The notes under the pieces: model-generated
Told to the model about the DNA's origin: nothing
Seen by the model: only the letters and a program-made list of their open reading frames with translations
The model's database searches: none
Shown here: piece after piece, positions 3,266 to 25,619 of the stretch
Layout of the letters: every line of letters begins with the position of its first letter
Numbering within the stretch: position 1 is the first letter of the stretch
Origin: Tannockella kyphosi
GTDB taxonomy: Bacteria; Bacillota_I; Bacilli_A; Erysipelotrichales; Coprobacillaceae
Length of the DNA: 32,000 nt
NCBI RefSeq assembly: GCF_021054785.1
Contig: NZ_CP088239.1
Span: 660,001-692,000 of the forward strand
Direction of reading: 5' to 3'
Translations under genes and position numbers: made by a program

Positions 3266-3859
3266 TATTTTGTGGCTAAAAATCCAAAATGTATGGACTG
3301 ATAATCTTAACATTATATAGTATTATAGAAATTATTGCGTATTTTGTTGAAGCTACTAATTATTTTATGGTTACCTTTGGATAAATCTTAAAAGCAATAA
3401 AGATCTATAAATAAGTCTATATTCACGAAAAACTGGAAATATTTTAAAACAATGATATTGAAGGTAATTTACGTACTATTGATAAATTACAGCAATTTGG
3501 CAAGGGAAAATGATTATGATGTTAGTTCTAAGTTTTTGCAGTATCACCTTTATTAGATGAATACTTAAATGCATATAGTAGGGTAGTGGATAATACCAAA
3601 CAATAAATATTGATATAATCTATATTTATCCTACACACCATAAGTTATCTTTCTGGACAAAATATGTATAATTTTAAATTGTTTTTTATCGTATAAAATT
3701 TGAACATTATAAACCTATGAACAGAGTATTCTTCAATATGAATGCAATAAAATACTGATTAGCATACTGGACTAGTATAGCGAATTAAAAATATAATGAA
3801 ACAATGATGAAGTAATGTTATAATTAGTTAAATATTATTTAGGAAATGGAGAGATTTAT

Positions 3860-5138: not shown

Positions 5139-5786
5139 ATGAAAGAAAATTTTATATGGAAAGATCCACAATTGCATAAAGATATATTAGAGATGGAGGA
5201 TATTGTTACTGAAAATACAGAAGATGAAATATACAATCTGATTATAAAAAATGTAGAAAAAATAGGTGATGATTTTTATAAATATGAATTTGTTAAAGTA
5301 CATTTTTTAAATTGTAAATTTGAGGAAGTATCATTTGAAAAGTGTTGGTTTAAAGAAATTATATTTGAAAACTGTCAGTTTAATCATTGTAGTTTCAAAA
5401 ATACTGATTTACAAATCGTAAAACAAATAAATTCTTTGCATAGAAATACTGATTTTTCAGATAGTACTTTTCATTTTGTCCATTTTCTAGAATGCAATAT
5501 GAAATATTCGAATTTTAATGATTGTAAAATTAATGGGTTTAAAAGTGATAAAAGTGATTTTAATAGTACCTTTTTTGCTAACAGTACAATAGTTCACGCA
5601 AGTCTTAAAAAAACTTCTTTTTGTTTAGCTGATTTCTTTTTGACACCTTTAAATAAGATAGATTTTAGTGATTCTGATATAGAAGGCATTGTTATATCTG
5701 AAAATAAAAGTGAACTAAAAGGCATTATAGTTAATAGTTATCAAGCACTTGAGTTAGCTCGCATGTTTGGTATTATCATAAAATGA
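5139..5786 (+). CDS. Pentapeptide-repeat protein
   Basis: Runs of A(D/N)LxX-like pentads (FLNCKFEEVSFEKCWFKEIIFENCQFNHCSFKNTDL...). Start chosen at ATG 5139 after GGGAG. Confidence 0.7.
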   Translation: MKENFIWKDPQLHKDILEMEDIVTENTEDEIYNLIIKNVEKIGDDFYKYEFVKVHFLNCKFEEVSFEKCWFKEIIFENCQFNHCSFKNTDLQIVKQINSLHRNTDFSDSTFHFVHFLECNMKYSNFNDCKINGFKSDKSDFNSTFFANSTIVHASLKKTSFCLADFFLTPLNKIDFSDSDIEGIVISENKSELKGIIVNSYQALELARMFGIIIK

Positions 5787-5802
5787 TCATAACCTGTATG
5801 TT

Positions 5803-5830
5803 AGACTGGATTAATCTCTAGTCTTTTTTT
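5803..5830 (+). terminator. Rho-independent terminator after the pentapeptide-repeat gene
   Basis: Stem agactgga/tctctagtct (one G-U pair) followed by T7. The hairpin belongs to the same family as those at 1672, 10097, 12367 and 13344. Confidence 0.5.
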
Positions 5831-5854
5831 GTATGGATATTTTATGGGTGTTTA

Positions 5855-6000
5855 CAATAGCAACGTAGATGCATTTAGATATAAACGATACCCACGTGCA
5901 AAAAAAGAGTGAAGCATAGAATGGAGTAAAAGAATATAACTTGTTAGAATTAGAAAAAGATAGGAAACAGGCTTGAATAGGTGAGAAGTATGCTATAATT
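5855..6000 (+). pseudogene. Degraded 3'-terminal remnant of a DUF1016/YhcG nuclease gene
   Basis: The segment aligns by eye to 11270-11415 of the intact copy. aatagcaacgtagatgcatttagatataaac matches aatagtaacgtatatgcatctagatataaac, and aagaatataacttgttagaattagaaaaag matches aagaatataatttgttagaattagaaaaaag. Both end at atgctataatt. Confidence 0.5.
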
Positions 6001-6107
6001 TTCTAAAGAATATTTATAGAAGAGTAATCTTAGATAATAAAAAGTGGACACGGTAAATAAAAATTATAATAATTTAAGCTATTTTACAAAAAGATAAAAT
6101 GAAATAA

Positions 6108-7959: not shown

Positions 7960-8440
7960 TATGTTATTTCTAAAAGTCCATTCTCACATCAAAAAGCTAG
8001 AAGTACCTTTTGAACTAGCATTTTATTTAACTTTTTCAAAAAGCCACGCACTGCGTGGCGAATTGAGTTGGACTCATTATCGTTTGTTAATGAGAGTGGG
8101 AGAGCTAGTAATTTTTATAAAGAAGAATGTGTAAGTTTTGACTGGGTACAAAGGTAAATTCATTGCTTTTATAATGAAATCTTGCTATCTAGTAAAGTTA
8201 GAAATAGTATAAAAGGTCCTTATGTATTAGGGCTTCTAGGACTTGTTGATCAGTCTTCTTTTAGCAAAAAAACAATTAGAGGTAGCTTTGATATCTCATT
8301 TACAAATCCTTATTGTCTCTAGAAAGAGGCTTTTTATTGAATATAAAAGAGAATCATATTTGATGGTAGACATTTTTATATAGACTTACTCTTTTATAAT
8401 TACTTATTGAAATGTTTTGTTATTATTGATTTAAAAAAGT
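7960..8440 (+). pseudogene. Decayed internal copy of the DUF1016/YhcG nuclease gene
   Basis: Colinear with about 10550-11110 of the intact gene. Identical stretches include gaattgagttggactcattatcgtttgttaatgagagt and gatggtagacatttttatatagacttactcttttataattacttattgaaatgttttgttattattgatttaaaaa. Frameshifts, stops and deletions interrupt it. The track ORF 7940-8134 is part of this relic. Confidence 0.7.
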
Positions 8441-8701
8441 GGAATAATTGGTGTGATACATTACACGAATTATTAGAATTGCAAAGATTATAAGCATTAT
8501 GCTCAAAGGTGTAACCTTTGATTCACTTATGACTATTTAATCAACCTAGAAAAATTATCATCTATTACAGCATAGTTGCTTAAAAATGCACATTTAATGA
8601 TATCAAGGAGATAAATTAGTTGATGTGTGTCGGTTCGAACTTTATGGCTGGTATTATTTGTGGATTAACCTACTCGAAAATTCATATAGAAAAGTAAAAT
8701 A

Positions 8702-10081: not shown

Positions 10082-10154
10082 ATGAGCATAATCAGTAGAC
10101 TAGATTAATTTCTAGTCTTTTTTAACACTTTCTTACTAGCAAGTTCTAAGAACA
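10082..10154 (+). repeat. Copy 1 of a ~70-bp block (R) containing a terminator hairpin
   Basis: atgagcataatcagtagactagattaatttctagtcttttttaacactttcttactagcaagttctaagaaca. Near-identical blocks lie at 12352 and 13324. The hairpin is agactaga/tctagtct plus T6. Confidence 0.8.
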
Positions 10155-10368
10155 GGATATTTTTATATAGATACAAATATTTATTCATTTTCAAACAATT
10201 AAATAAGCATCACAGTAAAAAGCCTAATAACTACTTCATCAATGTGATGATTTTAGAAAATAGTTTTTTTATTCTTGAAGAGTAATTGCTTCATGAATTA
10301 CGTATAACTTAATGAGAAAGTCATCAAAGAACAAAATGAAATAAATAAAAGAAAAGAGGGAACTAATA

Positions 10369-11385
10369 ATGGAATTAGAAAAAGAGATTGTAAATGATAT
10401 AAGAAATATCGTCTATCAAGCTAGAAATAAAGTATATCAAGTAACTAATAATACAATGGTACAATCGTATTATGAAATTGGTAGAACAATAGTAGAAAAA
10501 CAAGGTGGTATGGAAAAAGCAGAATATGGGAGTGAGCTTATTAAAACTATTTCAAAAGAATTGTCTGCAGAGTTTGGAAGAGGATTTACAACTACTAATT
10601 TGAAAAATATGCGTACATTTTATTTAACATTTCAAAAAGGTCACGCACTGCGTGACGAATTGAGTTGGACTCATTATCGTTTGTTAATGAGAGTAGAAAA
10701 TAAAAAAGCTAGAAATTTTTATGAAGAAGAATGTGTAAATTCTAACTGGAGTACTAGGCAACTAGAAAGACAAATTCATTCTTTTTATTATGAAAGGTTA
10801 TTATCTAGTAAAGATGGAAAAAGTACGAAAGATAAATCAATAGGTGAAGATGACATATTAAAATCACCAAGTGATATTATTAAAGATCCTTATGTATTAG
10901 AGTTTTTAGGACTTCCAGATCAGGCATCTTTTAGTGAAAAAGAATTAGAAAGTGCTTTGATCTCTCATTTACAAAAATTCTTATTAGAATTAGGAAGAGG
11001 TTTTTCTTTTATAGCAAGACAAAAAAGAATTACTTTTGATGGTAGACATTTTTATATAGACTTACTCTTTTATAATTACTTATTGAAATGTTTTGTTATT
11101 ATTGATTTAAAAATAGGGGACTTAACGCATCAAGACTTAGGACAAATGCAAATGTATGTAAACTACTATGAAGAAAAAGTAAGTAGTAAAGAAGATAATC
11201 CACCTATTGGTATTGTTTTATGTGTAGATAAAAGTGAAAGCTTAGTAAAATATACGTTACCTAAAAATAGTAACGTATATGCATCTAGATATAAACTATA
11301 CTTACCTAGTGAAGAAGAATTAAGAATAGAACTTCATAAAGAATATAATTTGTTAGAATTAGAAAAAAGAATTGGTAATAAGTGA
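10369..11385 (+). CDS. DUF1016/YhcG-family PD-(D/E)xK nuclease
   Basis: AGAGGGAA RBS and 338 aa. It has the family's N-terminal helical domain (ELSWTHYRLLM) and a C-terminal nuclease core (FYIDLLFYNYLLKCFVIIDLKIG). Confidence 0.8.
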   Translation: MELEKEIVNDIRNIVYQARNKVYQVTNNTMVQSYYEIGRTIVEKQGGMEKAEYGSELIKTISKELSAEFGRGFTTTNLKNMRTFYLTFQKGHALRDELSWTHYRLLMRVENKKARNFYEEECVNSNWSTRQLERQIHSFYYERLLSSKDGKSTKDKSIGEDDILKSPSDIIKDPYVLEFLGLPDQASFSEKELESALISHLQKFLLELGRGFSFIARQKRITFDGRHFYIDLLFYNYLLKCFVIIDLKIGDLTHQDLGQMQMYVNYYEEKVSSKEDNPPIGIVLCVDKSESLVKYTLPKNSNVYASRYKLYLPSEEELRIELHKEYNLLELEKRIGNK

Positions 11386-12295: not shown

Positions 12296-12351
12296 ATTTA
12301 ATCAGGAGAAAAGTTTTATATATTTCAGTGTTATCTATAGGTGGTCTTATT

Positions 12352-12424
12352 ATGAGCATAATCAGTAGATTAGATTAATTTCTAGTCTTTTTTAATACTT
12401 TCTAACTAGCAAGTTCTAAAAACA
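12352..12424 (+). repeat. Copy 2 of the ~70-bp block R
   Basis: atgagcataatcagtagattagattaatttctagtcttttttaatactttctaactagcaagttctaaaaaca. A degraded spoIVA 5' end follows it. Confidence 0.8.
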
Positions 12425-12456
12425 AAGAATAAATATAACGCTATTTAGGAGAAATT

Positions 12457-12775
12457 ATGATGGAAACAAAAAAGATACTTAAAGATAAACTATGAGATGT
12501 GACGACGATATCTCATTTAGCAGTAGTAGGGTAATAAGAACAGGGAAGTCTACGTTAATAAAACATAACACGTCAAGGCAGTAATACCTTACGACGATGA
12601 TCCTGCTACAAAGTTACGTGTTGCTATGAATTACCACAATCAGGTAAGGGTAAAATGATTATGACTGTAGAGCTAAATTTATCCCTAATCAAGCAGTATC
12701 AATATTATTAGAAGATAACTTAAACGTAAAGGCAAGGTTAGTGGATATTTGTGTAATAATAGGACCAAAACGAAT
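12457..12775 (+). pseudogene. spoIVA: Degraded duplicate of the spoIVA 5' end
   Basis: Colinear with 13435-13760. It begins atgatggaaacaaaaaagatacttaaagata and ends ggttagtggatatttgtgtaataataggaccaaaacgaa. A stop appears after 12 codons and the P-loop region is destroyed (gggtaataagaacagggaagtct). Confidence 0.75.
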
Positions 12776-13028
12776 TAAATTGCTATAATCAACACAATTT
12801 GATTTATGTTGCAAAAGTTATCTTTTTGTATTAAGAAAAGTATAATTTCAAGCTATTCTTTAGTCCTTATCGTACAAAATATTGGAACTAAAACTACTAT
12901 AAAAAATAGCTGATTAACTAAAATAGGATGTTAAGATTCAAAAAAACATAAAACAAAACTATGATTTTTCAGAACATAGGTGGATTTTATCCTATATTTC
13001 GAGTATACTATGTTTGAGGTGAGATAAA

Positions 13029-13280
13029 ATGATGATTAATACTGAAAATATAGTTGCAATGACAGAAGCAAATCAAAACTTTTCAAAAGTAGTTAGAATA
13101 GTTGATGAAAAAGGAATGGCAGTAATTATGAAAAATAACAAACCAAAATATATTCTTGTTGATTTTGAAGAATACGATGATATTCAGTTACTTCGTGAGG
13201 TTAGAACTAAGAAAATAAGTGAAGCTACAGATCAATTGATTGATGAAAATCTTGAAGCTTTTTTGGAGCTAGCTAAATGA
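13029..13280 (+). CDS. Phd/YefM-family antitoxin
   Basis: GAGGTGAG RBS and 83 aa. ...TEANQNFSKVVRIVDEKGMAVIMKNNKPKYILVDFEEY fits the Phd/YefM N-terminal fold. The stop overlaps the next ATG (ATGA). Confidence 0.7.
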   Translation: MMINTENIVAMTEANQNFSKVVRIVDEKGMAVIMKNNKPKYILVDFEEYDDIQLLREVRTKKISEATDQLIDENLEAFLELAK

Positions 13281-13327
13281 TATTTTTAACTATTGATGAA
13301 ATAATAATAATACACAGCATATTATGA
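13277..13327 (+). pseudogene. Truncated toxin gene (Doc/Fic-like N-terminus, 16 codons)
   Basis: MIFLTIDEIIIIHSIL* looks like the start of a Doc-type toxin. The frame ends exactly where repeat block R (copy 3) begins. Confidence 0.4.
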
Positions 13328-13399
13328 GCATACCCTGTGGATTAGACTAGATTAATTTCTAGTCTTTTTTTATACTTTCTTACTAGCAAGTTCTAAAAA
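13324..13399 (+). repeat. Copy 3 of the ~70-bp block R, immediately upstream of spoIVA
   Basis: atgagcataccctgtggattagactagattaatttctagtctttttttatactttcttactagcaagttctaaaaat. The hairpin plus T7 spans 13344-13371. Confidence 0.8.
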
Positions 13400-13434
13400 T
13401 AGAGAACAAACATACCACTAGTATAGGAGGAATT

Positions 13435-13821
13435 ATGATGGAAACAAAAAAGATACTTAAAGATATAACAAAGAGATGTGATGGGGATATCTATTTAGCA
13501 GTAGTAGGGCCTGTAAGAACAGGGAAGTCTACATTTATAAAGAAGTTCATGGAAAAGGCAGTAATCCCTTATATAGATGACCCAGATGCTAAGTTACGTG
13601 CTATTGATGAATTACCACAATCTGGTAAGGGTAAAATGATTATGACGGTAGAGCCTAAATTTATCCCTAATCAAGCAGTATCTATCTTATTAGAAGATAA
13701 CTTAAATGCAAAGGTAAGGTTAGTGGATGATTGTGTAATAATAGGACTAAACCGAAAAAAGCCCGTAAACACTGAGGTTTTAAGCAATTTAAAGAAAAGT
13801 TATCTCTTGCAGGTGGCTTGA
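13435..13821 (+). pseudogene. spoIVA: 5' fragment of stage IV sporulation protein A gene, interrupted by a mobile element
   Basis: GGAGG RBS. GDIYLAVVGPVRTGKSTFIKKFME...DELPQSGKGKMIMTVEPKFIPNQAVS...VRLVD closely matches my recollection of the first ~100 residues of B. subtilis SpoIVA (about 490 aa). Similarity stops near 13730-13745, after which 27 unrelated codons run to a stop. Confidence 0.85.
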
Positions 13822-13860
13822 AATGATAGAAATAATAAATTTAATAAACAATAAATCTTA

Positions 13861-13914
13861 AAGAGGGTTTGTTTTGTATTCCGAAAGGAGTATGAAACAA
13901 ACCCTCTTTTTTGT
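13861..13914 (+). terminator. Very strong hairpin terminator at the left end of the element
   Basis: Perfect 14-bp stem aagagggtttgttt/aaacaaaccctctt. An inner tattcc-GAAA-ggagta helix extends it, and TTTTTT follows. Confidence 0.6.
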
Positions 13915-13945
13915 GCCTAAAATTAAATGGAAAGGAGTTAAATTA

Positions 13946-14155
13946 ATGAGCATCAAAGAAGTGACAGAGGGTTTTGCGTTTGAAATGATGATGAAAGAAA
14001 CACCATATTCAAATAACTATGATAGTGGTAGTGATGGCATCTTAGAGGAATGTAGAAGCTGTCGTTTTCATAGACCGAATTGGAAACATGAAACTTGTGT
14101 ATATGAGTTTTGTCCTTATTCAAAGGAACCAATTTCAACACGCAGACAAAAATAA
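13946..14155 (+). CDS. Small Cys-rich protein, function unknown
   Basis: AAAGGAG lies before ATG 13946. 69 aa with CRSCRFHRPNWKHETCVYEFCPY. It is the first gene of the element. Confidence 0.5.
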   Translation: MSIKEVTEGFAFEMMMKETPYSNNYDSGSDGILEECRSCRFHRPNWKHETCVYEFCPYSKEPISTRRQK

Positions 14156-14171: not shown

Positions 14172-14993
14172 TTGAAAGCAAAGACTATCGCCGTCGTCAA
14201 CCAAAAAGGTGGTGTCGGCAAAACAACTACTTGTGCTAATTTAGGAATTGGTCTTGCACAAGAAGGTAAAAAGGTTCTTATCGTGGATTTAGATCCACAA
14301 GCATCATTAAGCATCAGCTTAGGGCAATCTCAACCGGATACACTCGATACGACTATTGCCAGTATCATGAACAAAGTAATTTCAGATATTCCACTTGAAC
14401 CAAACGAGGGTATTTTAGCACATGATGAGGGTATTGATTTTTTACCTTCAAACATTGAGTTATCAGCTGTGGAGGTATCGCTAGTTAATACCATGAGTCG
14501 AGAAAGTGTTTTGAAACAGTATCTTGATACTGTTAAAAATGATTACAATTTCATTCTTATTGACTGTTCTCCCTCACTTGGTATGTTGACTGTTAATGCT
14601 CTTGCTAGTGCAGATAGTGTAATTATCCCAGTCCAATCTCAATACTTGCCGGCAAAGGGTTTAGAACAGCTATTGCTGACAGTAGCTAAAGTGAGAAAAC
14701 AACTTAATCCTAAGTTAATGATTGATGGCATTTTAATGACAATGGTAGATAATCGCACAAACTTCGCAAAGGATATATGCACCTTGTTAAGAGAAACTTA
14801 TGGTGGAAAAATCAAAGTATTTAATACTGAAATTCCACAATCTGTAAGAGCTGCTGAAACATCAACAACTGGTAAAAGTATCTTTAGCCACGATCCAAAA
14901 GGAAAGGTAGCCGACAGCTACAAAAATTTGACAAAGGAGGTGATTAAAATTGAAAAGCTCCGTCAAAAACATAAATCTGAAATCGGTAGATGA
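14172..14993 (+). CDS. parA: ParA/Soj-family partition ATPase
   Basis: TTG start after AGGAGG. Deviant Walker A box NQKGGVGKTT and the DLDPQ motif are present. Confidence 0.85.
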   Translation: MKAKTIAVVNQKGGVGKTTTCANLGIGLAQEGKKVLIVDLDPQASLSISLGQSQPDTLDTTIASIMNKVISDIPLEPNEGILAHDEGIDFLPSNIELSAVEVSLVNTMSRESVLKQYLDTVKNDYNFILIDCSPSLGMLTVNALASADSVIIPVQSQYLPAKGLEQLLLTVAKVRKQLNPKLMIDGILMTMVDNRTNFAKDICTLLRETYGGKIKVFNTEIPQSVRAAETSTTGKSIFSHDPKGKVADSYKNLTKEVIKIEKLRQKHKSEIGR

Positions 14994-15879
14994 TATTTTT
15001 TCAACCGAAGAAACAAGACAAGACCAATACAAAGAAAAGGTCGTACAAATTCCTTTGAATGAACTGTATCCATTTAAAGACCACCCTTTCAAAGTCCTTG
15101 ATGATGATAAAATGATTGATACAGTTTTAAGTGTAAAGTCATATGGTGTACTTATTCCTGCAATCGCTAGACCTCGTGATGAGGGTGGATATGAGCTTGT
15201 AGCAGGTCATAGACGACATAGAGCAAGTGAACTCGCTGAACTTGATACAATGCCCGTACTTGTGCGTGATTTAGATGATGAAGAAGCAACGATTATTATG
15301 GTTGATAGTAATTTACAACGAGAAAACATTCTACCAAGTGAGCGAGCTTTTGCATTTAAAATGAAAATGGAAGCTATGAAAAAGCAGGGCGAAAGAAAAG
15401 ATTTAACTTCGTCCCAAATTGGGACGAAGTTGCAAAGAGCTGATGAAGTGATTGCAGAAGATGCAGGCACAAGTCGAAATCAAGTGCAAAGATACATTAG
15501 ATTGACAGAACTTATTCCCGAATTACTCTCGATGGTAGATGAAAAGAAAATGGGTATGACACCTGCTGTTGAACTATCATTTTTGAAACAAGAAGAACAA
15601 GTGGTGTTCCTTGATGTTTTAGATAGTGAACAAGCTATCCCCTCTTTATCTCAAGCACAGAGAATTAAAAAGTTAAGTGTTGATGGAAATTGTGACTTTG
15701 ATACTATGAGTGCCATTATGGGTGAAGAAAAGAAATCAGAAATCGGCAAAGTAAGTTTTTCAACTGACAAACTGAAAAAATACTTTCCTAAGTCTTATAC
15801 ACCACAAAAAATGCAAGATACAATCATCAAATTACTTGAAGGTTGGCACAAGAAAAAGCAGCAAAATCAAGAAAGGTAG
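14950..15879 (+). CDS. parB: ParB/Srx-domain partition protein
   Basis: TTG start 9 nt after AAGGAGG, overlapping the parA 3' end. PLNELYPFKDHPFKV and ELVAGHRRHRASELA are ParB-box motifs. Confidence 0.85.
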   Translation: MKSSVKNINLKSVDDIFSTEETRQDQYKEKVVQIPLNELYPFKDHPFKVLDDDKMIDTVLSVKSYGVLIPAIARPRDEGGYELVAGHRRHRASELAELDTMPVLVRDLDDEEATIIMVDSNLQRENILPSERAFAFKMKMEAMKKQGERKDLTSSQIGTKLQRADEVIAEDAGTSRNQVQRYIRLTELIPELLSMVDEKKMGMTPAVELSFLKQEEQVVFLDVLDSEQAIPSLSQAQRIKKLSVDGNCDFDTMSAIMGEEKKSEIGKVSFSTDKLKKYFPKSYTPQKMQDTIIKLLEGWHKKKQQNQER

Positions 15880-15980
15880 GTCTATATGAACAATGAAATT
15901 TATGCTCATTCCTTTAAAAAATTCTGCACGTTAAACGTACCTATCTATAAAGTCTAGCGACTTTTTAGGAGGTGTAGTCG

Positions 15981-16883
15981 ATGGCAGTTTTTAGAGTTGA
16001 GAAAACCAAAAACTACACTGTTATGGCAAACCACCATTTGCAAAACAAAGAATTATCTTTAAAGGCAAAAGGGTTACTATCCATGTTGTTATCACTTCCC
16101 GATACTTGGGAACATAGTATTGCAGGATACGCAGTTATTTGTCGTGATGGTGTAGATGGGGTTAGTAGTACAATCAAGGAACTCGAAAAAAATGGATACA
16201 TTATTAGAACAAGACTTAGAAATGATAAAGGTCATTTTACTGATACCGAGTATACCATTTTAGAACTTCCACAGAGTATACCAAAAGAGGAAAATCCTAA
16301 ACCGGAAAAGCCTATCTTGGAAAATCCAATCTTGGATAAACCACAAATGGATAAACCAAAACTGGCTGAACCTATCTTGGAAAATCCCCTGCAATTAAAT
16401 ACTAAACAATTAAATACTAAAGAATTAAATACTAAAGAATTAAATACTAAAGAATTAAATACTAATGTATTAAATCCTTATCTAATCAATCAAAAGATAC
16501 AAGGATACGAAATGATAGGATTTGATAGTTATGATGAATTAAAATCAGTTGTTTATGAGAATATTGAATATGAGCATTTTAGAAAATATGGCAAAATATC
16601 AGAAGTCGAAAGAATAAAGGAAATAGCTGATATTATTATTGAAACTTTGTGTTCTACAAAACCAACGATTAATGTAGCAGGTGAAGATTATCCGTCACAA
16701 CTTGTAAAGGATAAAATGTTAAAGATAAGTTCTTCTCATATTGAATATGTTTTTGAATGTATGAAAGCTAATCCAAGTGAGATAAGAAACATTAAGAGAT
16801 ACCTGCTTGCAACACTATTTAATGCTCCCTCAACTATGGACAATTATTATACAGCAAAAGTAAATCACGATTTCAATTACTAA
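15981..16883 (+). CDS. Winged-helix/HTH protein, putative replication initiator of the element
   Basis: AGGAGG RBS. The N-terminus (VMANHHLQNKELSLKAKGLLSMLLSLPDTWEHSIAGYA...ELEKNGYI) resembles RepA_N/HTH-type initiators of Firmicutes elements. The centre is a low-complexity region of proline and LNTKE repeats. Confidence 0.6.
   Translation: MAVFRVEKTKNYTVMANHHLQNKELSLKAKGLLSMLLSLPDTWEHSIAGYAVICRDGVDGVSSTIKELEKNGYIIRTRLRNDKGHFTDTEYTILELPQSIPKEENPKPEKPILENPILDKPQMDKPKLAEPILENPLQLNTKQLNTKELNTKELNTKELNTNVLNPYLINQKIQGYEMIGFDSYDELKSVVYENIEYEHFRKYGKISEVERIKEIADIIIETLCSTKPTINVAGEDYPSQLVKDKMLKISSSHIEYVFECMKANPSEIRNIKRYLLATLFNAPSTMDNYYTAKVNHDFNY
16395..16478 (+). repeat. Tandem 15-bp repeat (ttaaatactaaagaa) x ~5.5 inside the rep-like gene
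   Basis: Direct count gives units at 16395, 16410, 16425, 16440, 16455 and a partial one at 16470. The array is in frame and encodes (LNTKE/Q)n. Confidence 0.9.
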
Positions 16884-16939
16884 AACACTTTGAATGAAAC
16901 AGAGTGTTTTTATTTTGCCCAAAAGAAAGGAAATATTAC

Positions 16940-17539
16940 ATGAAAGAATTTGATATTACAATTACTGAAACACTTGAAAAAGTAGTAACAGTGAAAGCAG
17001 AAAGCCAAGAAGAAGCCGAGGACTTAGTCCATGACCAGTGGTCGCAAAGTATCCATGTATTAGATGCTGATAACTTTACTGGAGCAACTATTAAAACATC
17101 GGCAACACGAGAAATTGAAGAAGTTTCAAAATTAACAGTTTTACTTATCGAGCCAATGAAACCACCTTCAGTAGTAGAGATTTCAAGTGACTTAGACAGC
17201 TTGCAAAAGGCTGTTGGTGGCTATATTGAAACTGCCCATTTCTTTAATGATCCGATTGAGATTGTTTGTAACGAAGAAGGCAAAATTAACAGTCTACCAT
17301 TAAATCGTGCAATTTATAATGAGCAAGGCGATATGGTAGAAATTTTAGCAGGCTCATTTTTAATTGTTGGTGATGGTGAAGAAGATTTTGAAAGTCTTTC
17401 TCCAGAAATGATTGATAAGTATTCTAAGGTTTTTGAAAAACCCGAAAAATTCTTTAAATTAGCAGGAGCTGTTGTCGTACAAAAACTCGAGCCTTTGAAA
17501 GAAAAAGATGCAACTGAAAAAACACAAATGGAGAGATGA
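16940..17539 (+). CDS. DUF3846-domain protein with DpnD/PcfM-like N-terminus
   Basis: AAAGGAAA lies before ATG 16940. The N-terminus is ITITETLEKVVTVKAESQEEAEDLV, and the centre has LLIEPMKPPSVVEISSDLDSLQKAVGGYIE...CNEEGK. Both domains are common on Firmicutes conjugative elements. Confidence 0.65.
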   Translation: MKEFDITITETLEKVVTVKAESQEEAEDLVHDQWSQSIHVLDADNFTGATIKTSATREIEEVSKLTVLLIEPMKPPSVVEISSDLDSLQKAVGGYIETAHFFNDPIEIVCNEEGKINSLPLNRAIYNEQGDMVEILAGSFLIVGDGEEDFESLSPEMIDKYSKVFEKPEKFFKLAGAVVVQKLEPLKEKDATEKTQMER

Positions 17540-17542
17540 ATT

Positions 17543-17785
17543 ATGGTTGTTATTACCAGTGTCAAAGATATTGAAACTGCTTATGAAGAATTAAGCATTG
17601 CGATTATTGTTCAAGCTGCAAATGATTATAGAAAAGTGTTAAAGAAACTCGAGAGTGATCCGTTTAATGTTTTGTTACTTGTAGAAAGAGCAGAAATTGA
17701 ACAGTTTTTTCATTCTCAATGGTATGAGTGTTTAACTACTGTTGATGGGACTATGATTTTACGCAGATTGAAGAATGGAGAATAA
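17543..17785 (+). CDS. Hypothetical 80-aa protein
   Basis: The ORF starts 4 nt after the previous stop and is tightly packed in the operon. No family recognised. Confidence 0.5.
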   Translation: MVVITSVKDIETAYEELSIAIIVQAANDYRKVLKKLESDPFNVLLLVERAEIEQFFHSQWYECLTTVDGTMILRRLKNGE

Positions 17786-17818
17786 TCCTCTCTCCAACAT
17801 AAAAGGAGGTGTTAGAAA

Positions 17819-18301
17819 ATGTCAATCCAAGAAGATATTGATCATCGAAGTATTGCACTTACCACAAGAGCTGCTAAGGTAACTGGTCATACACTCTATA
17901 AAATGATTAGAATGTATATGCAACATCGCAAAAACAAGAAAATGCACCCAAACATTCCACAAGGAAAGCAAACTGTTAAAGCTCTAGCCAAGCAAGGGCA
18001 AGGTATGACTTCACTTGATATGAATGATAATGATGTAAAGTTATTTGACCGATTGATGCGAAAATATGGTGTTGATTATGCAATTATGACAGACAAAAAG
18101 ACAAAGCCACCCACTCATACTATTTTCTTTAAAGGAAAAGATGCTGATGCTGTGACAAAGGCTTTTTCAGAATTTACATCAGAGATTACTAAAAAGCAAA
18201 GCAAAAACTCTGTTCTTGCACAACTCAAACAGTTTGTTGAATTGGTGAAGAACAATACGATCGATAGAGTTAAAAACAAAGATAAGGAGCATACACGATG
18301 A
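17819..18301 (+). CDS. pcfB: PcfB-family (DUF3801) conjugation protein
   Basis: AAGGAGG RBS. ...GKQTVKALAKQGQGMTSLDM...DVKLFDRLMRKYGVDYAIM...TIFFKGKDADAV fits the PcfB pattern. In related elements as I recall them, this gene usually lies just upstream of the coupling-protein gene. Confidence 0.7.
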   Translation: MSIQEDIDHRSIALTTRAAKVTGHTLYKMIRMYMQHRKNKKMHPNIPQGKQTVKALAKQGQGMTSLDMNDNDVKLFDRLMRKYGVDYAIMTDKKTKPPTHTIFFKGKDADAVTKAFSEFTSEITKKQSKNSVLAQLKQFVELVKNNTIDRVKNKDKEHTR

Positions 18302-18771
18302 AACGAAAATTTATAGTCAGTTTTCTGTTACTGACAATATGTCTATCTTTAGTGTCTTGCACCAAAGATAACGAGATAGACCAAACCTTAACAGAAGAAC
18401 AATCCCAAACAGAAAGTATTGAGGAAGATGATTTAGTCGTAGGAGAAACAGATGCCGACAATGAAGTTGATTATTCTTGGTTAGAAGAATTAAGAGAAAC
18501 AACTGGTTGTGAGCTGTGTGGCTCTACTGATTGTCCCTCTCTTTATGCTACTGATGAATGGGGACAAGATGACATTGATATTACCTTATGTGAAGAATAT
18601 GACATCACCAGTGATCCACTTTACTATTGCCCGATTTGTGGCAAAGAAAAAGGCGATGGCACAAATGATACTTGCGTTAGATATTTAGAAGATATGACTT
18701 GTTATCTGTGTGGTGAAGATGTTACTTGCCTAGAATGTCATACCTGCAAGGAGGTGGAACAGCTTGAATAA
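18298..18771 (+). CDS. Cys-rich lipoprotein
   Basis: The start overlaps the pcfB stop (ATGA). Lipobox LSLVS|C, an acidic linker, then four CxxC motifs (CELC, CPIC, CYLC, CLEC). Confidence 0.65.
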   Translation: MKRKFIVSFLLLTICLSLVSCTKDNEIDQTLTEEQSQTESIEEDDLVVGETDADNEVDYSWLEELRETTGCELCGSTDCPSLYATDEWGQDDIDITLCEEYDITSDPLYYCPICGKEKGDGTNDTCVRYLEDMTCYLCGEDVTCLECHTCKEVEQLE

Positions 18772-21469
18772 ATCAAAGAGATTTCGTCCACTTATCATGA
18801 GTGCTATTTGTATGCTAATGATTTTTACAACTAGCATTAACGCCTTTGCTATTTCTTGGAATGGTAGCTCAGATGGTGGTGGAGGTGGTGGATCATCAGC
18901 GACTACACCGGGTTATTCCATTACTTATACGAATTACAATAACGTGGCAGGTTATCGCTTTTCAGTTATAGATGCAAGTGGTAATACTGTTTCAAAAGTA
19001 ATTGATGTTTACCGAAGTGGTTATTCAACCTACATGAGTTCCTATCAGAAGTTTAGTACCAAGTACAATAAAGCACAACTTATAGCAAAGCAAAATAGCA
19101 GTTTTTCCATTACTTCTAATACCACTAACTGCTTTAATGAGTCTAGCTTTAGTATTTCACTACCCGATCCCGATGGTATGGCAAGTTGGGCAAAAACAGA
19201 TGCAAACTTAAATGCTATTTTACGAGAACTTGGATTTTCAAATGGTGTAGATAGTTTATCCTATGGTTACAAGGTAATTGTAGAGCCTTTACAACTTGTC
19301 CGTATAGAAACTGTTCGATGTGTTTTAACATTAACTGAAATTGCCCTTTATGGGAAACATTTGTTAGGTGCATCAAGTAATGGCGGCTCAAGTAGTAATA
19401 GTGGTACATGGGGATTTATTGCAAATTATACTAATATGCACTTTGCAAACTGGTTATACACTCCCGATGGAATGGGTGTTTGGGGTAATGCAAGTTATTT
19501 AAGTAGCAAAGCTACATTTTATACGATTATTAATTCGGGATATGGTGTAGGTGTTGCCTATGACGTGGCTACAAGGCAAGAATATACGGTTACTTACAAT
19601 GCCAATGGTGGTAGTAATGCCCCGAGTTCTCAAACCAAATACGAAGATGTTAGCTTAACACTTAGAACAGCAACTCCCACACGAACGGGTTATACCTTTA
19701 AAGGTTGGGGAACGTACGCAACAGATACTTCTGTAAATTATAGTGCAGGTGGAACATACACCTCAAACAGCAACATTACTTTATATGCTATATGGGAACG
19801 AAACTCCTACACAGTCAGTTATAATGCCAATGGTGGTAGTAATGCCCCGAGTTCTCAGACGAAGTATTATGGAATAAACCTCACCTTGAGGACAGCAATA
19901 CCTACACGAACGGGATACACATTTAGTGGTTGGGGAACGTATGCAACCGATACTTCTGTAAATTATAGTGCAGGTGGAACGTATACTTCCAATAGTGGAA
20001 TTACCCTCTATGCGATATGGACACCGAACTATTACACGCAGACCATAAACTTTTATAAGTATAATCCACTTACCGATGATTGGATCTACTACACGACTAA
20101 AACCACATCAGCAAAGTATGGGACAACATTTACTCCAACTACCACTGGCGTAACAACACCAACGGGACATTATTTTGGTGGATTTTCCGTTAGTTCGTGG
20201 ACTGTAACGGGAGCAAAAACGATAAAGGGATATTATTATCCCAATGAGTACACCGTTAGTTACAACGCAAACGGAGGTAGCAATGCTCCAAATCCTCAAA
20301 CTAAATACTATGGTTATAACTTAACTTTGAGTAGTCAAATACCAACTCGAACGGGTTATGATTTTGCAGGTTGGGGAACATACGCAACCGATACTACTGT
20401 GAATTATAGTGCAGGTGGAACATATAGCTCCAATAGTAGCACTACCCTCTATGCGATATGGACACCGAATGTAGATATTTATCCCGAATATATCGTGCCA
20501 AACTCCAGTTATAGGCAAGGAACTGATATTATTGTCAGCTATGACATTGTAAATGACGGAGTATTTAGCTTTACACCAAGCGATCCTCTTGAAGTAACTC
20601 TTACAGTAAGCTCGACCAATGATGCAGGAGTAACAACACAGATTTTAAATACTTCTGAAGATGTAATTGTCCCGAGTTATAACGAAAATCTTGTGTATTT
20701 CAAGGTAAGTGTCCCGAGTGACAGTCGTTATCTCACGTTTAAAATAAATGTTTCTTCCAGTGTAGAAGAATACGATTATGCAAATAACACTTCTACAAAA
20801 GTCGTTTCCGTTACTTCGGTGGTAGACTCACAAACAGAAGATACCACTTTTGAAAGTTCACCAACTGGATTTACTGTACCAAGCTCCACAGCTAGTACAC
20901 CTACTTTGGGTGAAACAGCAGTAAGTAGTGCAACGTGGCAAGTATGGGAATGGAGCAATAACGCATTCGTGCTTAACACTTATGGAGTTACTTATTCTCC
21001 TACAATATCTGTAACAGCTGACACAGTAGTTCAGACCGAAACAGTAAGTGGTAGCATTACTACCATGAAATCGGGATACGGAATTATGTTTGAAGCAACA
21101 ACGGGCATATCTTCTTACGGAAGTTATTTAATGCCAAGTAGTGATGCCTATACATCAGCTCAAAATGGAGCATTATTTTTACCCGAATATCAGTATTCTA
21201 GTGCAATCAATAGTTATCGCACATTAGGACTGATTAGCAATATATTGACACTTGAACAAAACAGTAATGCTCTAAATAGTAATGGATCAAGTGCATATCG
21301 AAGGGTACATTTTACACCGATTTATTATCCCGATGGAATGTATGTATTAAAATCTTACATTTATGATGTTTGGACACCGGCAGGCATGATTAGTGCCACC
21401 ACCACAACAAGCCAAATCAAGATAGATGGAAATATCTATGATGATTGGTTTTACACAACTATTCAATAA
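18764..21469 (+). CDS. Large secreted surface protein with Listeria-Bacteroides (Flg_new) repeat domains
   Basis: TTG start 9 nt after AAGGAGG. Signal peptide ...TTSINAFA|ISW, then a Gly run. Three clear YTV(T/S)YNANGGSNAP...PTRTGY(T/D)F.GWGTYATDT.VNYSAGGTY.SNS..TLYAIW domains and one degenerate domain follow. I see no LPxTG motif and no C-terminal anchor. Confidence 0.75.
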   Translation: MNKSKRFRPLIMSAICMLMIFTTSINAFAISWNGSSDGGGGGGSSATTPGYSITYTNYNNVAGYRFSVIDASGNTVSKVIDVYRSGYSTYMSSYQKFSTKYNKAQLIAKQNSSFSITSNTTNCFNESSFSISLPDPDGMASWAKTDANLNAILRELGFSNGVDSLSYGYKVIVEPLQLVRIETVRCVLTLTEIALYGKHLLGASSNGGSSSNSGTWGFIANYTNMHFANWLYTPDGMGVWGNASYLSSKATFYTIINSGYGVGVAYDVATRQEYTVTYNANGGSNAPSSQTKYEDVSLTLRTATPTRTGYTFKGWGTYATDTSVNYSAGGTYTSNSNITLYAIWERNSYTVSYNANGGSNAPSSQTKYYGINLTLRTAIPTRTGYTFSGWGTYATDTSVNYSAGGTYTSNSGITLYAIWTPNYYTQTINFYKYNPLTDDWIYYTTKTTSAKYGTTFTPTTTGVTTPTGHYFGGFSVSSWTVTGAKTIKGYYYPNEYTVSYNANGGSNAPNPQTKYYGYNLTLSSQIPTRTGYDFAGWGTYATDTTVNYSAGGTYSSNSSTTLYAIWTPNVDIYPEYIVPNSSYRQGTDIIVSYDIVNDGVFSFTPSDPLEVTLTVSSTNDAGVTTQILNTSEDVIVPSYNENLVYFKVSVPSDSRYLTFKINVSSSVEEYDYANNTSTKVVSVTSVVDSQTEDTTFESSPTGFTVPSSTASTPTLGETAVSSATWQVWEWSNNAFVLNTYGVTYSPTISVTADTVVQTETVSGSITTMKSGYGIMFEATTGISSYGSYLMPSSDAYTSAQNGALFLPEYQYSSAINSYRTLGLISNILTLEQNSNALNSNGSSAYRRVHFTPIYYPDGMYVLKSYIYDVWTPAGMISATTTTSQIKIDGNIYDDWFYTTIQ
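19583..20461 (+). repeat. Block of four ~70-aa domain repeats within the surface protein gene
   Basis: Units start at 19583, 19808, about 20030 (degenerate) and 20249. Units 1 and 2 share long identical nucleotide runs such as aatgccaatggtggtagtaatgccccgagttctca. Confidence 0.75.
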
Positions 21470-21646: not shown

Positions 21647-21871
21647 ATGAAAAACAAAATTAAACAAGCAGGAAGAACAGTAAAAAACAAAGCAGCATCT
21701 ATTATCACATCAGTGAAAGGAATGTCACAGACTACCGAAACAGTATTACTTATCGTATTAGTGGTGGCAGTCATTGGAGCATTCTTTGCTCCTGCGATTA
21801 CAAGTTGGTTTAGTGGTGTTATGTCAGATCTAGCTACCCACACAGAAGGCATCTTCAACTTTGCACCATAA
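21647..21871 (+). CDS. flp: Flp-type (type IVc / class III signal peptide) prepilin, copy 1
   Basis: AGAGGAAAA RBS and 74 aa. A basic leader ends in KG, followed by MSQTTETVLLIVLVVAVIGAFFAP, a hydrophobic helix with a conserved Glu. It sits immediately upstream of the prepilin peptidase and Tad machinery. Confidence 0.7.
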   Translation: MKNKIKQAGRTVKNKAASIITSVKGMSQTTETVLLIVLVVAVIGAFFAPAITSWFSGVMSDLATHTEGIFNFAP

Positions 21872-21982
21872 GAAACAACATTACTTCACAATGAGAGCTT
21901 ATAAGTACCTAAGATGCTTATAGGCTTTTGTTATACAGAAACCAACAAACAAAATCAAACAAGAAAGAAAGAGGAAATTATT

Positions 21983-22207
21983 ATGGTTAACAAAATCAAA
22001 CAAGCAGGAAGAACAGTAAAAAACAAAGCAGCATCTATTATCGCATCTGCAAAAGGTATGTCACAGACTACCGAAACAGTATTGCTTATCGTATTAGTCG
22101 TGGCAGTCATTGGAGCATTCTTTGCTCCTGCAATTACAAGTTGGTTTAGTGGTGTTATGTCAGACCTAGCCACCCACACAGAAGGTATCTTCAACTTTGC
22201 ACCATAA
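21983..22207 (+). CDS. flp: Flp-type prepilin, copy 2 (tandem paralogue)
   Basis: ATG 21983 follows AGAGGAAA; the track start at 21914 is upstream and has no RBS. The predicted mature 49 aa are identical to copy 1. Confidence 0.7.
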   Translation: MVNKIKQAGRTVKNKAASIIASAKGMSQTTETVLLIVLVVAVIGAFFAPAITSWFSGVMSDLATHTEGIFNFAP

Positions 22208-22223
22208 GAAGAATAAAGTCGAA

Positions 22224-22249
22224 ACAGCCTGCCTACTTTGGTAGGCTGT
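22224..22249 (+). terminator. Stem-loop between flp-2 and tadV (weak or partial terminator, or mRNA stabiliser)
   Basis: 10-bp stem acagcctgcc/ggtaggctgt (one G-U pair) with loop tacttt. The U-tract after it is poor. Confidence 0.35.
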
Positions 22250-22304
22250 ATTGTAGAAATGACTACCTACAACCGAAGATGACAAGTCAAAATTGGAGGA
22301 CGAT

Positions 22305-22862
22305 ATGTTACTTAAAATCAAACGTAAATTAAAGGATATAAATGGTGGCATATCAGTCCCCGTTATATTTCCACTTATTGCTCTTTTATTAGTGACAATC
22401 CTACACCTTACATTTTTCTCGATAGGAAACGAAACTTTCTTATCTTGGAATTTAGTAAAAGCAATGTTATTTATTACCATACTTGTATTTGCATCTATTA
22501 GCGATCTAAAAACAATGACAGTATCAGATAAATACACGTTCATGTTACTTGGAGTGGGACTAGTTGGTGTAACTCTCGATAGCTTAGTAGGAGCTAGTAT
22601 CTGTTTTATCTCATTTTTCTTAGTGGCTATGCTGACTAATCTAGGTGGAGCAGATGTAAAAATCGCAGGAGCTTGTGGCTTTGTACTTGGTGCATTACCA
22701 AGTTTAATCGCCTTGCTCATTGGACTATCCCTATCAGTAATTGTAGAAATTGCAGTTACACTAATTAAAAGAGAACCTATCAAAAGGCACTATCCACTTG
22801 TGCCTTACATTACAATCGGCTGTATTGCCGTAACCATTATGAAAGGAATTAACCTATTATGA
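22305..22862 (+). CDS. tadV: A24-family prepilin peptidase (TadV/CpaA type, no methyltransferase domain)
   Basis: Polytopic membrane protein with the two catalytic Asp contexts SISDLKT and LGGADVKIAGACG. GGAGGA lies upstream. ATG 22305 is preferred over TTG 22293. Confidence 0.8.
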   Translation: MLLKIKRKLKDINGGISVPVIFPLIALLLVTILHLTFFSIGNETFLSWNLVKAMLFITILVFASISDLKTMTVSDKYTFMLLGVGLVGVTLDSLVGASICFISFFLVAMLTNLGGADVKIAGACGFVLGALPSLIALLIGLSLSVIVEIAVTLIKREPIKRHYPLVPYITIGCIAVTIMKGINLL

Positions 22863-23614
22863 AACTAATTAGAAACAGACTATTTTTAGCTACCATTTGT
22901 GTAGTATTATCAGCACTTTGTGTTTATTCATTTTTACAATCCAACACATCGGAGGATGTAACAGCATATAAACTCAATACAAATATTAGTCAAGGAACAC
23001 AAATTACCGATGAAATGCTTACTTCAGTAACTATTGGTACAAAAGGCATGGATAATGTTGTGTTAGATGAAAATGAGATTATTGGAAGTTATGCAGCTAC
23101 TGATTTAGCTAATGGTCAAATAATCATTGATACTCTACTTGTGGATACGCAAGCTGATGTTATTCAAGGTTTTGATAAATTGGAAGATGGAAAAATTGCT
23201 TTTACTATTTCTTCTAGTTCTCTTGCAAGTAGTGTGGCAAATAAACTTCAATCGGGAGATATTGTTTCCGTCTATGTCAACACAAACGGAGTATCCACTC
23301 AACCAATCTTGCTAAAATACGTAGAGGTACTTTATGTTAGCACTTCAACTGGGGCAGATAAAACAGAAACAGATGAAGAATCTATTTCCGTTATTACTCT
23401 TATTGTAAATGAAGAACAAGCCTTGCTTTTAAATGAATATGAATATACAAGTAATTTGCATCTTGCTCTTATCTCTCGTGGTGATGAAACTCTAAAACAA
23501 GAATATTTAACTGCACAAGAACTTTTACAAGAAGAATATATCCCTGCTGAACAAACTGAGGACGATGTGACAGACAGCGAAGAAGATGTACTCACTCATG
23601 AAATCACAGAATAA
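22859..23614 (+). CDS. cpaB: CpaB/RcpC-family Flp pilus assembly protein
   Basis: ATGA overlap with tadV. An N-terminal TM segment is followed by a SAF-like segment (VTAYKLNTNISQGTQITDEMLTSVTIG) and then GKIAFTISSSSLASSVANKLQSGDIVSVYV. The tail is acidic. Confidence 0.7.
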   Translation: MKLIRNRLFLATICVVLSALCVYSFLQSNTSEDVTAYKLNTNISQGTQITDEMLTSVTIGTKGMDNVVLDENEIIGSYAATDLANGQIIIDTLLVDTQADVIQGFDKLEDGKIAFTISSSSLASSVANKLQSGDIVSVYVNTNGVSTQPILLKYVEVLYVSTSTGADKTETDEESISVITLIVNEEQALLLNEYEYTSNLHLALISRGDETLKQEYLTAQELLQEEYIPAEQTEDDVTDSEEDVLTHEITE

Positions 23615-23624
23615 GGAGGACAAC

Positions 23625-25617: not shown

Positions 25618-25619
25618 GT

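Follow-up and report, generated by a model that had tools for sequence, protein, structure and literature searches.

A conjugative element end inside spoIVA of Tannockella kyphosi: a probable relic of integration at a recurrent target site

Some mobile elements reside within sporulation genes and excise solely in the mother cell, a classic example of a parasite turned into a developmental switch. Does the break in spoIVA, the coat-basement ATPase gene, of Tannockella kyphosi belong to this class, or did a mobile element leave a dead gene behind? We analysed a 32,000-nucleotide stretch (the window; positions 660,001 to 692,000 of contig NZ_CP088239.1, which is 2,260,890 bp long), in which a 5′ part of spoIVA runs directly into an integrative conjugative element (ICE). 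Our results favour, with a probability of about 0.6, that an ICE of the large serine recombinase (LSR) type integrated in spoIVA and that the locus in T. kyphosi is now a decayed relic and not a developmental switch.

The open reading frame (ORF) at 13435-13821 on the forward strand encodes 128 amino acids and is annotated as a 'hypothetical protein' (WP_318031845.1). It matched the Pfam family SpoIVA_ATPase (PF09547) with E = 1.8e-44, which rules out a chance similarity; residues 2-101 aligned with positions 1-99 of the 237 positions of the family, and no other family was convincing. The Walker A motif GPVRTGKST (P-loop) is undamaged. The rest of the ATPase domain is lacking, as the match stops at position 99 and the ORF at 128 amino acids, and so are the middle (PF20438) and C-terminal (PF20439) domains of the full SpoIVA protein of ~490 amino acids. 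The ORF counts as a truncated piece of the gene and not as a SpoIVA protein. Its spoIVA part, hereafter copy A, comprises codons 1-98 (13435-13728, forward strand), assigned by PF09547 and by identity to relatives; on the host side, it would make up half of attL, the left junction. Copy A is 75-89% identical to SpoIVA of Coprobacillaceae, with a query in which residues 98-159 were taken from the protein P0002.

The upstream region of copy A (13320-13434, forward strand), delimited by terminator prediction and by the layout in relatives, contains a terminator hairpin (13344-13365), GTTCTAAA (13390-13397), the CATACCAC box (13411-13418) at a spacing of 13 nt and a ribosome-binding site. The same layout, GTTCTAAA-N13-CATATAAA (CATAyAAA), precedes intact spoIVA in four relatives (L007, L010, L011 and L015); the CATACCAC box therefore occupies a conserved promoter position and looks native. 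GTTCTAAA is also part of a dispersed repeat, which makes up the left ~75 bp of 13320-13434 and occurs four times in the window.

The point at which spoIVA ends could be placed to the base. Full-length spoIVA was extracted from 15 relatives, and 14 of them encode R-L/M-V-D-C/S-V-G-Y/F at residues 93-101, with the native continuation ...GTn GAT TGT/AGT GTn GGn TAT. The window reads GTG GAT↓GAT TGT GTA ATA ATA GGA CTA AAC (here and below, the arrow marks the break). Because the relatives' continuation differs from the window sequence there, we placed the break after GAT 13726-13728, the last codon in common with the relatives' SpoIVA (...VRLVD), and the departure from 13729 on. The G+C content also steps at the junction, from 25-31% left of ~13.7 kb to 34-40% to the right. 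Past the break, the ORF ends in an element-encoded tail (DCVIIGLNRKK...QVA, stop; 13729-13821, forward strand), and a predicted intrinsic terminator with a 20-bp stem and a T-run (13863-13906, forward strand) lies just within the ICE; it is kept in the metagenome contig L002 and partly in the contig L001 (both described below). A sequence-only reading of this locus had described the ORF at 13435 as about the first 100 residues of SpoIVA up to VRLVD, followed by a switch to unrelated sequence and a stop, then a strong terminator and parA/parB, with the DNA to the right of the switch taken as a conjugative element and not a prophage relic. The Pfam match and the P-loop bore out the first of these points; the switch proved to lie exactly at 13728/13729, the terminator is the 20-bp stem just given, and ParA (14172-14993) and ParB (14950-15879), both on the forward strand and assigned by Pfam, do follow. 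The interrupter is a Tn1549/CTn4-like ICE, not a prophage, with a gene set of ParA/ParB, DUF6017, PcfM, PcfB and a VirD4-like protein. A group II intron or an insertion sequence as interrupter was ruled out by collinear ICE genes past the junction in two hosts and by a relative in which both arms are seen.

The same element end was found in spoIVA of other hosts. In the metagenome contigs L002 (ERZ27277072) and L003, which come from different samples and have an identical arrangement, an ICE collinear with that of the window sits at the same spoIVA codon, and DNA homology between the ICEs of the window and L002 begins exactly at 13729. The third case, L001 (GCA_964369475.1, contig CAYJFK010000005.1, 67 kb), has only the element end and the terminator in common with the window. 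The same spoIVA codon is interrupted by a collinear element in one other distant host, and a third host carries the same element end. The proteins P0031 (...LIDDCVIIGLNKK...) and P0036 (...MIDDCVIIGLNRKK...) are N-terminal SpoIVA fragments that are ~61-62% identical to that of the window and end in the same kind of foreign tail; in their contigs, sipL lies directly ahead of the spoIVA fragment, with host genes upstream. When the three DNA sequences were aligned, they diverged up to the break and were identical from GATGATTGTGTAATAATAGGACTAAAC on. Since the same base was hit in three hosts, this position in spoIVA is a preferred site.

Relatives with an intact gene were represented by the best 80 full-coverage SpoIVA loci from a scan of genome contigs. 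These 80 showed neither the element-end motif nor a second spoIVA copy, and no match to the TnpX-like recombinase of the window, the sole recombinase used as query, was found within 10 kb of them. A scan of the viral contig collection for the element end gave 0 matches, and tblastn searches of plasmids and phages with SpoIVA returned only intact genes or truncations at contig ends, with no split gene. One candidate for a second element junction, P0047 (...VDCV↓RISCSK), was rejected because it is a frameshift caused by a 1-nt insertion, with the 3′ ORF directly after it. The insertion (TGTGTG[C]GGATAT; L096, 10290-10300) lies near the junction site and was seen in 42 blocks of the contig collection. 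A second recurrent frameshift near this site, a +1 shift after ...NAI/L, was observed in metagenomic Clostridia spoIVA genes of five sequence backgrounds (P0023, P0039, P0043, P0045 and P0060). One cluster of these +1-shift sequences has 185 members; frameshifts of both kinds may be real or assembly artefacts.

Both ends of a related ICE were seen in Vescimonas fastidiosa. A weak short-query match (E = 5) in the plasmid collection pointed to the record pMM35_01 (NZ_AP023416.1; L094/L095), which we then read; it holds an ICE of ~55.0 kb at 606187-661169. Its left end, TATTGTGCGATAATAGGACTAAAT, is related to that of the window, and its two arms form an imperfect, near-palindromic inverted repeat around AT, TTTAGTCCCTACTTGACACAAGAAG-AT-TATTGTGCGATAATAGGACTAAAT. 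Three large genes and one small gene of the 'recombinase family' (serine recombinases) lie at its right end. Proteins common to the two ICEs have identities of 46% for the left-end ORF, 44% for DUF6017, 43% for DUF3846, 30% for PcfB and 58% for the coupling protein. The target in V. fastidiosa is a TnpX-like recombinase gene, split as ...VIVKD↓MSRFGRD... and rejoinable in frame. No copy of the 5′ part of this target was present at the right end of the V. fastidiosa ICE, where the right arm is an ordinary inverted left arm. This end anatomy is that of an LSR attachment site.

The left end of the window's ICE can be read by analogy. GATTGTGTAATAATAGGACTAAAC (13729-13752, forward strand) is present a single time in the window (0 expected by chance) and is conserved at independent junctions: it is identical in L001, L002 and L003 although their spoIVA parts differ, its first 22 nt are exact in two further metagenome contigs (L090 and L091), and 20 of 24 bases are the same in V. 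fastidiosa. The dinucleotide AT stands directly before the element end at all six independent junctions (window, L001, L002, L090, L091 and V. fastidiosa), and is also the base pair common to both V. fastidiosa junctions. The crossover dinucleotide is thus probably AT at 13727-13728, judged from its position at these six junctions. Arms around a 2-bp crossover and an end conserved at independent junctions, with the inverted right arm seen in V. fastidiosa, are what is expected of an attachment site, and we infer that 13729-13752 is the P′ half-site (P′ arm) at the ICE left end and that the integrase gene lies at the right end of the ICE.

Taken together, the following course of events may be proposed. 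The ICE would encode an LSR at its distal end, and this enzyme would recombine the attachment site of the element with a spoIVA site that separates the codons of Asp97 and Cys/Ser98 (native numbering); 13435-13945 would be the left junction (attL) of a Tn1549/CTn4-type ICE. The product of integration would be the spoIVA promoter with codons 1-98 fused to 30 element codons and a terminator, presumably with loss of spoIVA function. At the other end of the ICE, a right arm resembling GTTTAGTCCTATTATTACACAATC-AT would be expected, followed by spoIVA resuming at TGT/AGT GTn GGn TAT.

Is spoIVA the only target of this element family? A metagenome scan with a 22-mer gave two contigs, L090 (341-362) and L091 (804-825), in which the identical element end interrupts serine-recombinase genes, a different one in each contig, after ~100 N-terminal residues, and another element follows. 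The fusions read ...VSLN↓DCVIIGLS and ...IAVN↓DCVIIGLS, each ending in a stop, and the host flanks of all six junctions have only TRRAT in common before the element. spoIVA is used repeatedly by this ICE family but is not its sole target. With serine-recombinase genes also split by this end, target choice may have nothing to do with mother-cell or sporulation biology. We also observed that the relatives of this ICE end that lie in serine-recombinase genes, which belong to other mobile elements, are inserted at two conserved motifs of these proteins, KD↓MSRFGRD and V-S/A-L/V-N↓D.

If the gene could be rebuilt, as the sequence-only reading supposed, the 3′ ~390 codons of spoIVA should lie in the genome. 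With full-length SpoIVA as tblastn query, no 3′ part was found within the window. The protein collection was searched with the C-terminal 394 amino acids of the closest full-length relative (L005), and no T. kyphosi protein was among the 120 best matches, which went from 89% down to 53% identity and were nearly all of full coverage. Proteins of T. kyphosi are present in this collection, including an unannotated 127-aa ORF. A search of the same collection with the N-terminal part returned only two short T. kyphosi proteins and no full-length SpoIVA of this species. An intact 3′ spoIVA ORF is therefore very unlikely in T. kyphosi. Short SpoIVA proteins of the 3′ type (404-461 amino acids) had been candidates for right junctions; they turned out to be partial genes.

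The 5′ fragment had been treated as single. The fragment is real, but two further, decayed copies lie to its left in the window. Copy B (12348-12883, forward strand) consists of a decayed upstream region and 5′ fragment (12348-12746), a P′-like arm (12747-12770), ~90 bp of further sequence and a P-arm-like sequence (12858-12881). Over 438 bp, 12348-12774 is 84% identical to 13320-13756, promoter, ribosome-binding site and P′ arm included, and the copy carries several stops and frameshifts. The sequence CTTTAGTCCTTATCGTACAAAATA at 12858-12881, ~90 bp past the P′ arm, resembles an inverted right arm; because both arms bound it, a ~138-bp remnant element follows copy B. The right flank of this remnant was compared with SpoIVA and is not spoIVA. 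Copy C (3403-3721, forward strand) is an older, partial 5′ fragment (3403-3594) that ends at the same GTGGAT and is followed by a decayed remnant element; its identity is 67% with copy A and 62% with copy B, the similarity reaching past the junction. The remnant element is that of copy B with a 15-nt deletion in the arm, and since both have it, copies B and C go back by duplication to a single old insertion that has been reduced in size. Copies A, B and C are all cut at the same base.

A fourth copy, the 101-aa protein P0017 (WP_249029628.1, 'stage IV sporulation protein A'), is encoded elsewhere in the T. kyphosi genome. It has the frameshifted stretch CDDDISFSSSR of copy B, its P-loop is destroyed and it ends in ...VDSVRF; among the proteins retrieved, it is the sole T. 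kyphosi protein named SpoIVA. The dispersed repeat of ~75 bp, which contains a terminator hairpin (GACTAGATTAATTTCTAGTC and a T-run) and a GTTCTAA motif, occurs four times in 8 kb (5777-5833, 10082-10155, 12348-12424 and 13320-13402) next to unrelated genes, and may have mediated segmental duplications. The left edge of the repeated unit was considered as the right arm of an element and rejected, as it is this dispersed terminator repeat. The T. kyphosi locus is most likely a graveyard with at least four 5′ fragments of different ages and one insertion shrunk to a 138-bp remnant, and earlier events as well as segmental duplications would be recorded in the row of fragments. The interval between copies B and A contains a phd antitoxin gene (Pfam PhdYeFM, E = 3.1e-9) and a doc-like ORF, the latter assigned by reading of its sequence only (together 13029-13327, forward strand). 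The doc-like ORF (MIFLTIDEIIIIHSIL, then a stop) ends after 16 codons, where the repeated unit starts.

The part of the ICE within the window begins with a small ORF at the left end (13947-14155, forward strand) that has no Pfam match; its ATG at 13947 lies inside a longer form, ORF 13874-14155, which has counterparts in L002 (62% identity) and in the V. fastidiosa ICE (46%). A maintenance and leading module follows (14172-18301, forward strand; Pfam), with ParA, ParB, DUF6017, PcfM/DUF3846 and PcfB/DUF3801, which are 84%, 79%, 74%, 64% and 81% identical to their counterparts in L002, respectively. Overall, the gene set is homologous to that of L002 at 64-84% and to the V. fastidiosa ICE at 30-58%; genes for VirB4, VirB6 and the relaxase, also expected in an ICE of this type, would be located past the right edge of the window. 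Next come a 901-aa surface protein with Listeria-Bacteroides repeats (18764-21469, forward strand; Pfam), in which self-comparison showed tandem repeats at 19580-20469, and a Tad/Flp-like pilus module (21647-28282, forward strand; Pfam and self-comparison). The latter comprises a prepilin peptidase, CpaB, a T2SSE ATPase, two membrane proteins and a DUF4320 protein, together with two tandem pilin-like genes (21647-21871 and 21914-22207) that are 90% identical. This module sits between PcfB and the coupling-protein gene and is lacking in the V. fastidiosa relative. A megablast search of the plasmid collection with the ICE found a single relative, a truncated one in a Subdoligranulum record, with no ends visible.

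The ICE is itself interrupted. The gene of its VirD4-like coupling protein is cut after ...VVTDPKG, leaving a 5′ fragment of 175 of ~589 amino acids (28292-28828, forward strand), identified by homology; it is 58% identical to residues 5-176 of a 589-aa 'CD1115 family' homologue of V. fastidiosa. The cut is followed 45 bp later by the recombinase gene (28871-30670) of a nested TnpX/TnpV-type element, which starts at 28871, was followed by Pfam to 31440 on the forward strand and continues beyond the window. The recombinase contains the Pfam domains Resolvase, Recombinase, Zn_ribbon_recom and DUF4368 and is followed by TnpV (E = 3.6e-35); a DUF3847 match in the element was weak (31.0 bits, against a curated cut-off of 40). 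A TnpX-type LSR with DUF4368 and an adjacent tnpV are as in Tn4451/Tn4453-like mobilisable transposons, of which the nested element is a candidate member. This recombinase is the sole one in the window, which stops at 32,000, inside the nested element and short of the distal end of the ICE. In another assembly, L084 (9422-12021), the coupling-protein fragment is only 68% identical but cut at the same residue, and behind it lie a recombinase with 100% identity and TnpV. Two different ICEs thus have this gene split at one and the same place by a TnpX-like element, which appears to target this position. As the coupling-protein gene is split, the ICE would be unable to transfer unless the nested element excises. 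A mutual targeting was also noted: the ICE family splits TnpX-like recombinase genes, and a TnpX-like element sits in the window's ICE.

Further to the left in the window, a YhcG/DUF1016 gene for a PDDEXK nuclease is intact at 10369-11385 and has decayed partial copies upstream at 8019-8443 and 5856-6021 (72-73% identity). At the left window edge, two overlapping ORFs (52-537 and 476-1648) both match the nitrogenase component 1-type oxidoreductase family.

How well does a relic account for these observations, compared with a living switch? The ICE could be a developmentally regulated intervening element that is excised early in the mother cell by its own recombinase and a directionality factor, rebuilding spoIVA. 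spoIVA is a mother-cell gene whose native promoter is kept, the frame of copy A is intact, LSR junctions are precise and reversible (the V. fastidiosa target can be rejoined in frame), the same insertion stands unchanged in two samples beside an intact sipL, and a non-phage element with three serine recombinases behaves in this way in gerE (PMC5595907). For T. kyphosi we nevertheless regard developmental excision, and with it the analogy to skin and SPbeta drawn in the sequence-only reading, as quite unlikely. No intact 3′ spoIVA ORF of this species was among the best 120 matches, the neighbouring copies are decayed, the flank of the remnant is not spoIVA and the ICE is disrupted. Furthermore, the same family of ends is also found in non-sporulation genes, and the part of the ICE within the window shows no recombinase of its own, no directionality factor and no sporulation promoter. 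SpoIVA is also needed early, so that excision would have to occur very soon after sigma-E activation. In spore-forming Clostridia of the L002/L003 type, where the 5′ fragment and the sipL gene just ahead of it are intact, the ICE family might be a true spoIVA intervening element that leaves in the mother cell under sigma-E by means of its own recombinase and directionality factor; we consider this unlikely. Were it so, this would be the first conjugative intervening element shown and the first in an early, sigma-E-stage morphogenetic gene, and ICE excision would be tied to the sporulation decision, with the gene of the coat-basement ATPase rebuilt.

Two other explanations start from the row of fragments. 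If the right end of the ICE brought along a promoter and a 5′ segment of spoIVA, in the manner of SXT at prfC, integration would restore the target together with a new attachment site, and successive integrations would orphan 5′ fragments, the oldest on the left. The three 5′ fragments with the same cut base and orientation, the decay that falls from left to right and the end of the row at the ICE all suit such a history, as does P0017, which goes two codons beyond the cut (...VDSV). It is very unlikely all the same: the V. fastidiosa ICE, the one relative on which this was tested, has no 5′ copy of its target, copies B and C stem from one event by duplication and not from separate integrations, the left edge of the repeated unit is the 75-bp dispersed repeat, which favours segmental duplication, and protein searches gave no full-length T. 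kyphosi SpoIVA. Alternatively, the 5′ fragments and junctions may have been imported on mobile DNA and never have been T. kyphosi spoIVA, the ICE or a composite of tandem elements having acquired the flanking 5′ region in an earlier sporulating host. The upstream context is without sipL and holds accessory genes and pseudogenes, an identity of 84% between copies A and B is a large gap for copies in one genome, and the segment with phd, the truncated doc-like ORF and copy A has a P-arm-like sequence on its left and a P′ arm on its right. Against import, copy A and the DNA to its left have a G+C content of 25-31%, compared with 34-40% in the ICE, copy A is closest to SpoIVA of the host's own family, Coprobacillaceae (75-89%), and flanking DNA is not normally carried along in LSR excision. 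We consider import just as improbable as target restoration.

Several points weigh against the reading that we prefer, namely integration of an LSR-type ICE in spoIVA followed by decay. That no 3′ ORF turned up is the outcome for a single protein database and depends on the genes called there, and a fragmented or unlisted 3′ part would escape. What abuts the ICE at its far end lies outside the sequence examined, as do that end itself and the recombinase. Copy A, with P-loop, promoter and ribosome-binding site, is intact compared with the decayed copies B and C, which fits a recent insertion into a functional gene. A simple insertion accounts neither for a row of 5′ fragments cut at the same base, for which we have scenarios only, nor for the position of the intact copy A next to copy B, to which it is 84% identical. 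T. kyphosi itself is reported to be non-spore-forming in its species description.

Many gut and fish-gut Firmicutes have lost sporulation. Insertions in spoIVA are a plausible one-step route to such a loss, and the decayed row in T. kyphosi shows the aftermath. With spoIVA, an early and structurally essential gene joins those hit by serine-recombinase elements, and at least three distant Firmicutes have the break at one and the same base. For the P′ arm, the native target and the inferred crossover, the sequences are known precisely enough to allow the design of polymerase chain reaction assays or recombinase mining.

The closest known system is the gin element, which interrupts gerE in Bacillus cereus ATCC 10987; it is not a phage, has three serine recombinase genes and was shown by experiment to excise specifically during sporulation (PMC5595907). 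Like gin, the ICE of the window is a non-phage interrupter of a mother-cell gene, and its V. fastidiosa relative also has three recombinases; in contrast, gin has no conjugation genes and gerE is rebuilt, whereas here the interrupter is an ICE and the target is spoIVA. The intervening elements skin (sigK), SPbeta (spsM), vfbin (spoVFB), vrin (spoVR) and yin (yabG) were likewise inserted by LSRs (PMC4191935, PMC5025042, PMC10747680). As in these cases, a mother-cell gene is interrupted in its coding sequence at a recombinase junction, here after ORF codon 98, and the 5′ fragment keeps its native promoter. They differ in that they derive from prophages, whole or as relics, that the two halves of the gene are both there and that excision is regulated; the locus in the window is decayed and duplicated. 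In the literature searched, spoIVA was not named as a target, many subscription papers being outside the coverage.

With elements of the Tn1549/CTn4-CTn5 type, the ICE shares ParA/ParB, DUF6017, PcfB, the 'CD1115 family' VirD4-like protein and nested TnpX/TnpV elements; Tn6103, which is CTn5-like, also contains nested mobilisable transposons, Tn6104-6106 (PMC3158075). The recombinases of such elements lie at one end, which for the window's ICE is outside the sequence examined. It differs from them in the Tad/Flp-like module and the repeat surface protein before the coupling-protein gene, and in its site in spoIVA. The element ends in unrelated genes (spoIVA and two recombinase-gene positions), with only TRRAT in common in the flanks, recall the multi-targeting LSRs of the TndX/TnpX clade (PMC10083194), but the same base of spoIVA in three hosts is more specific than an integrase with a relaxed motif predicts. 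An ICE in the 5′ part of an essential-pathway gene is also a point of likeness to SXT/R391, unlike which the V. fastidiosa relative has no restoring segment. On integration in the 5′ part of prfC, SXT/R391 restores the gene by bringing in a promoter and a 5′ end of its own. Within this known phenomenon, what is new here is spoIVA as the target gene and a conjugative element as the interrupter.

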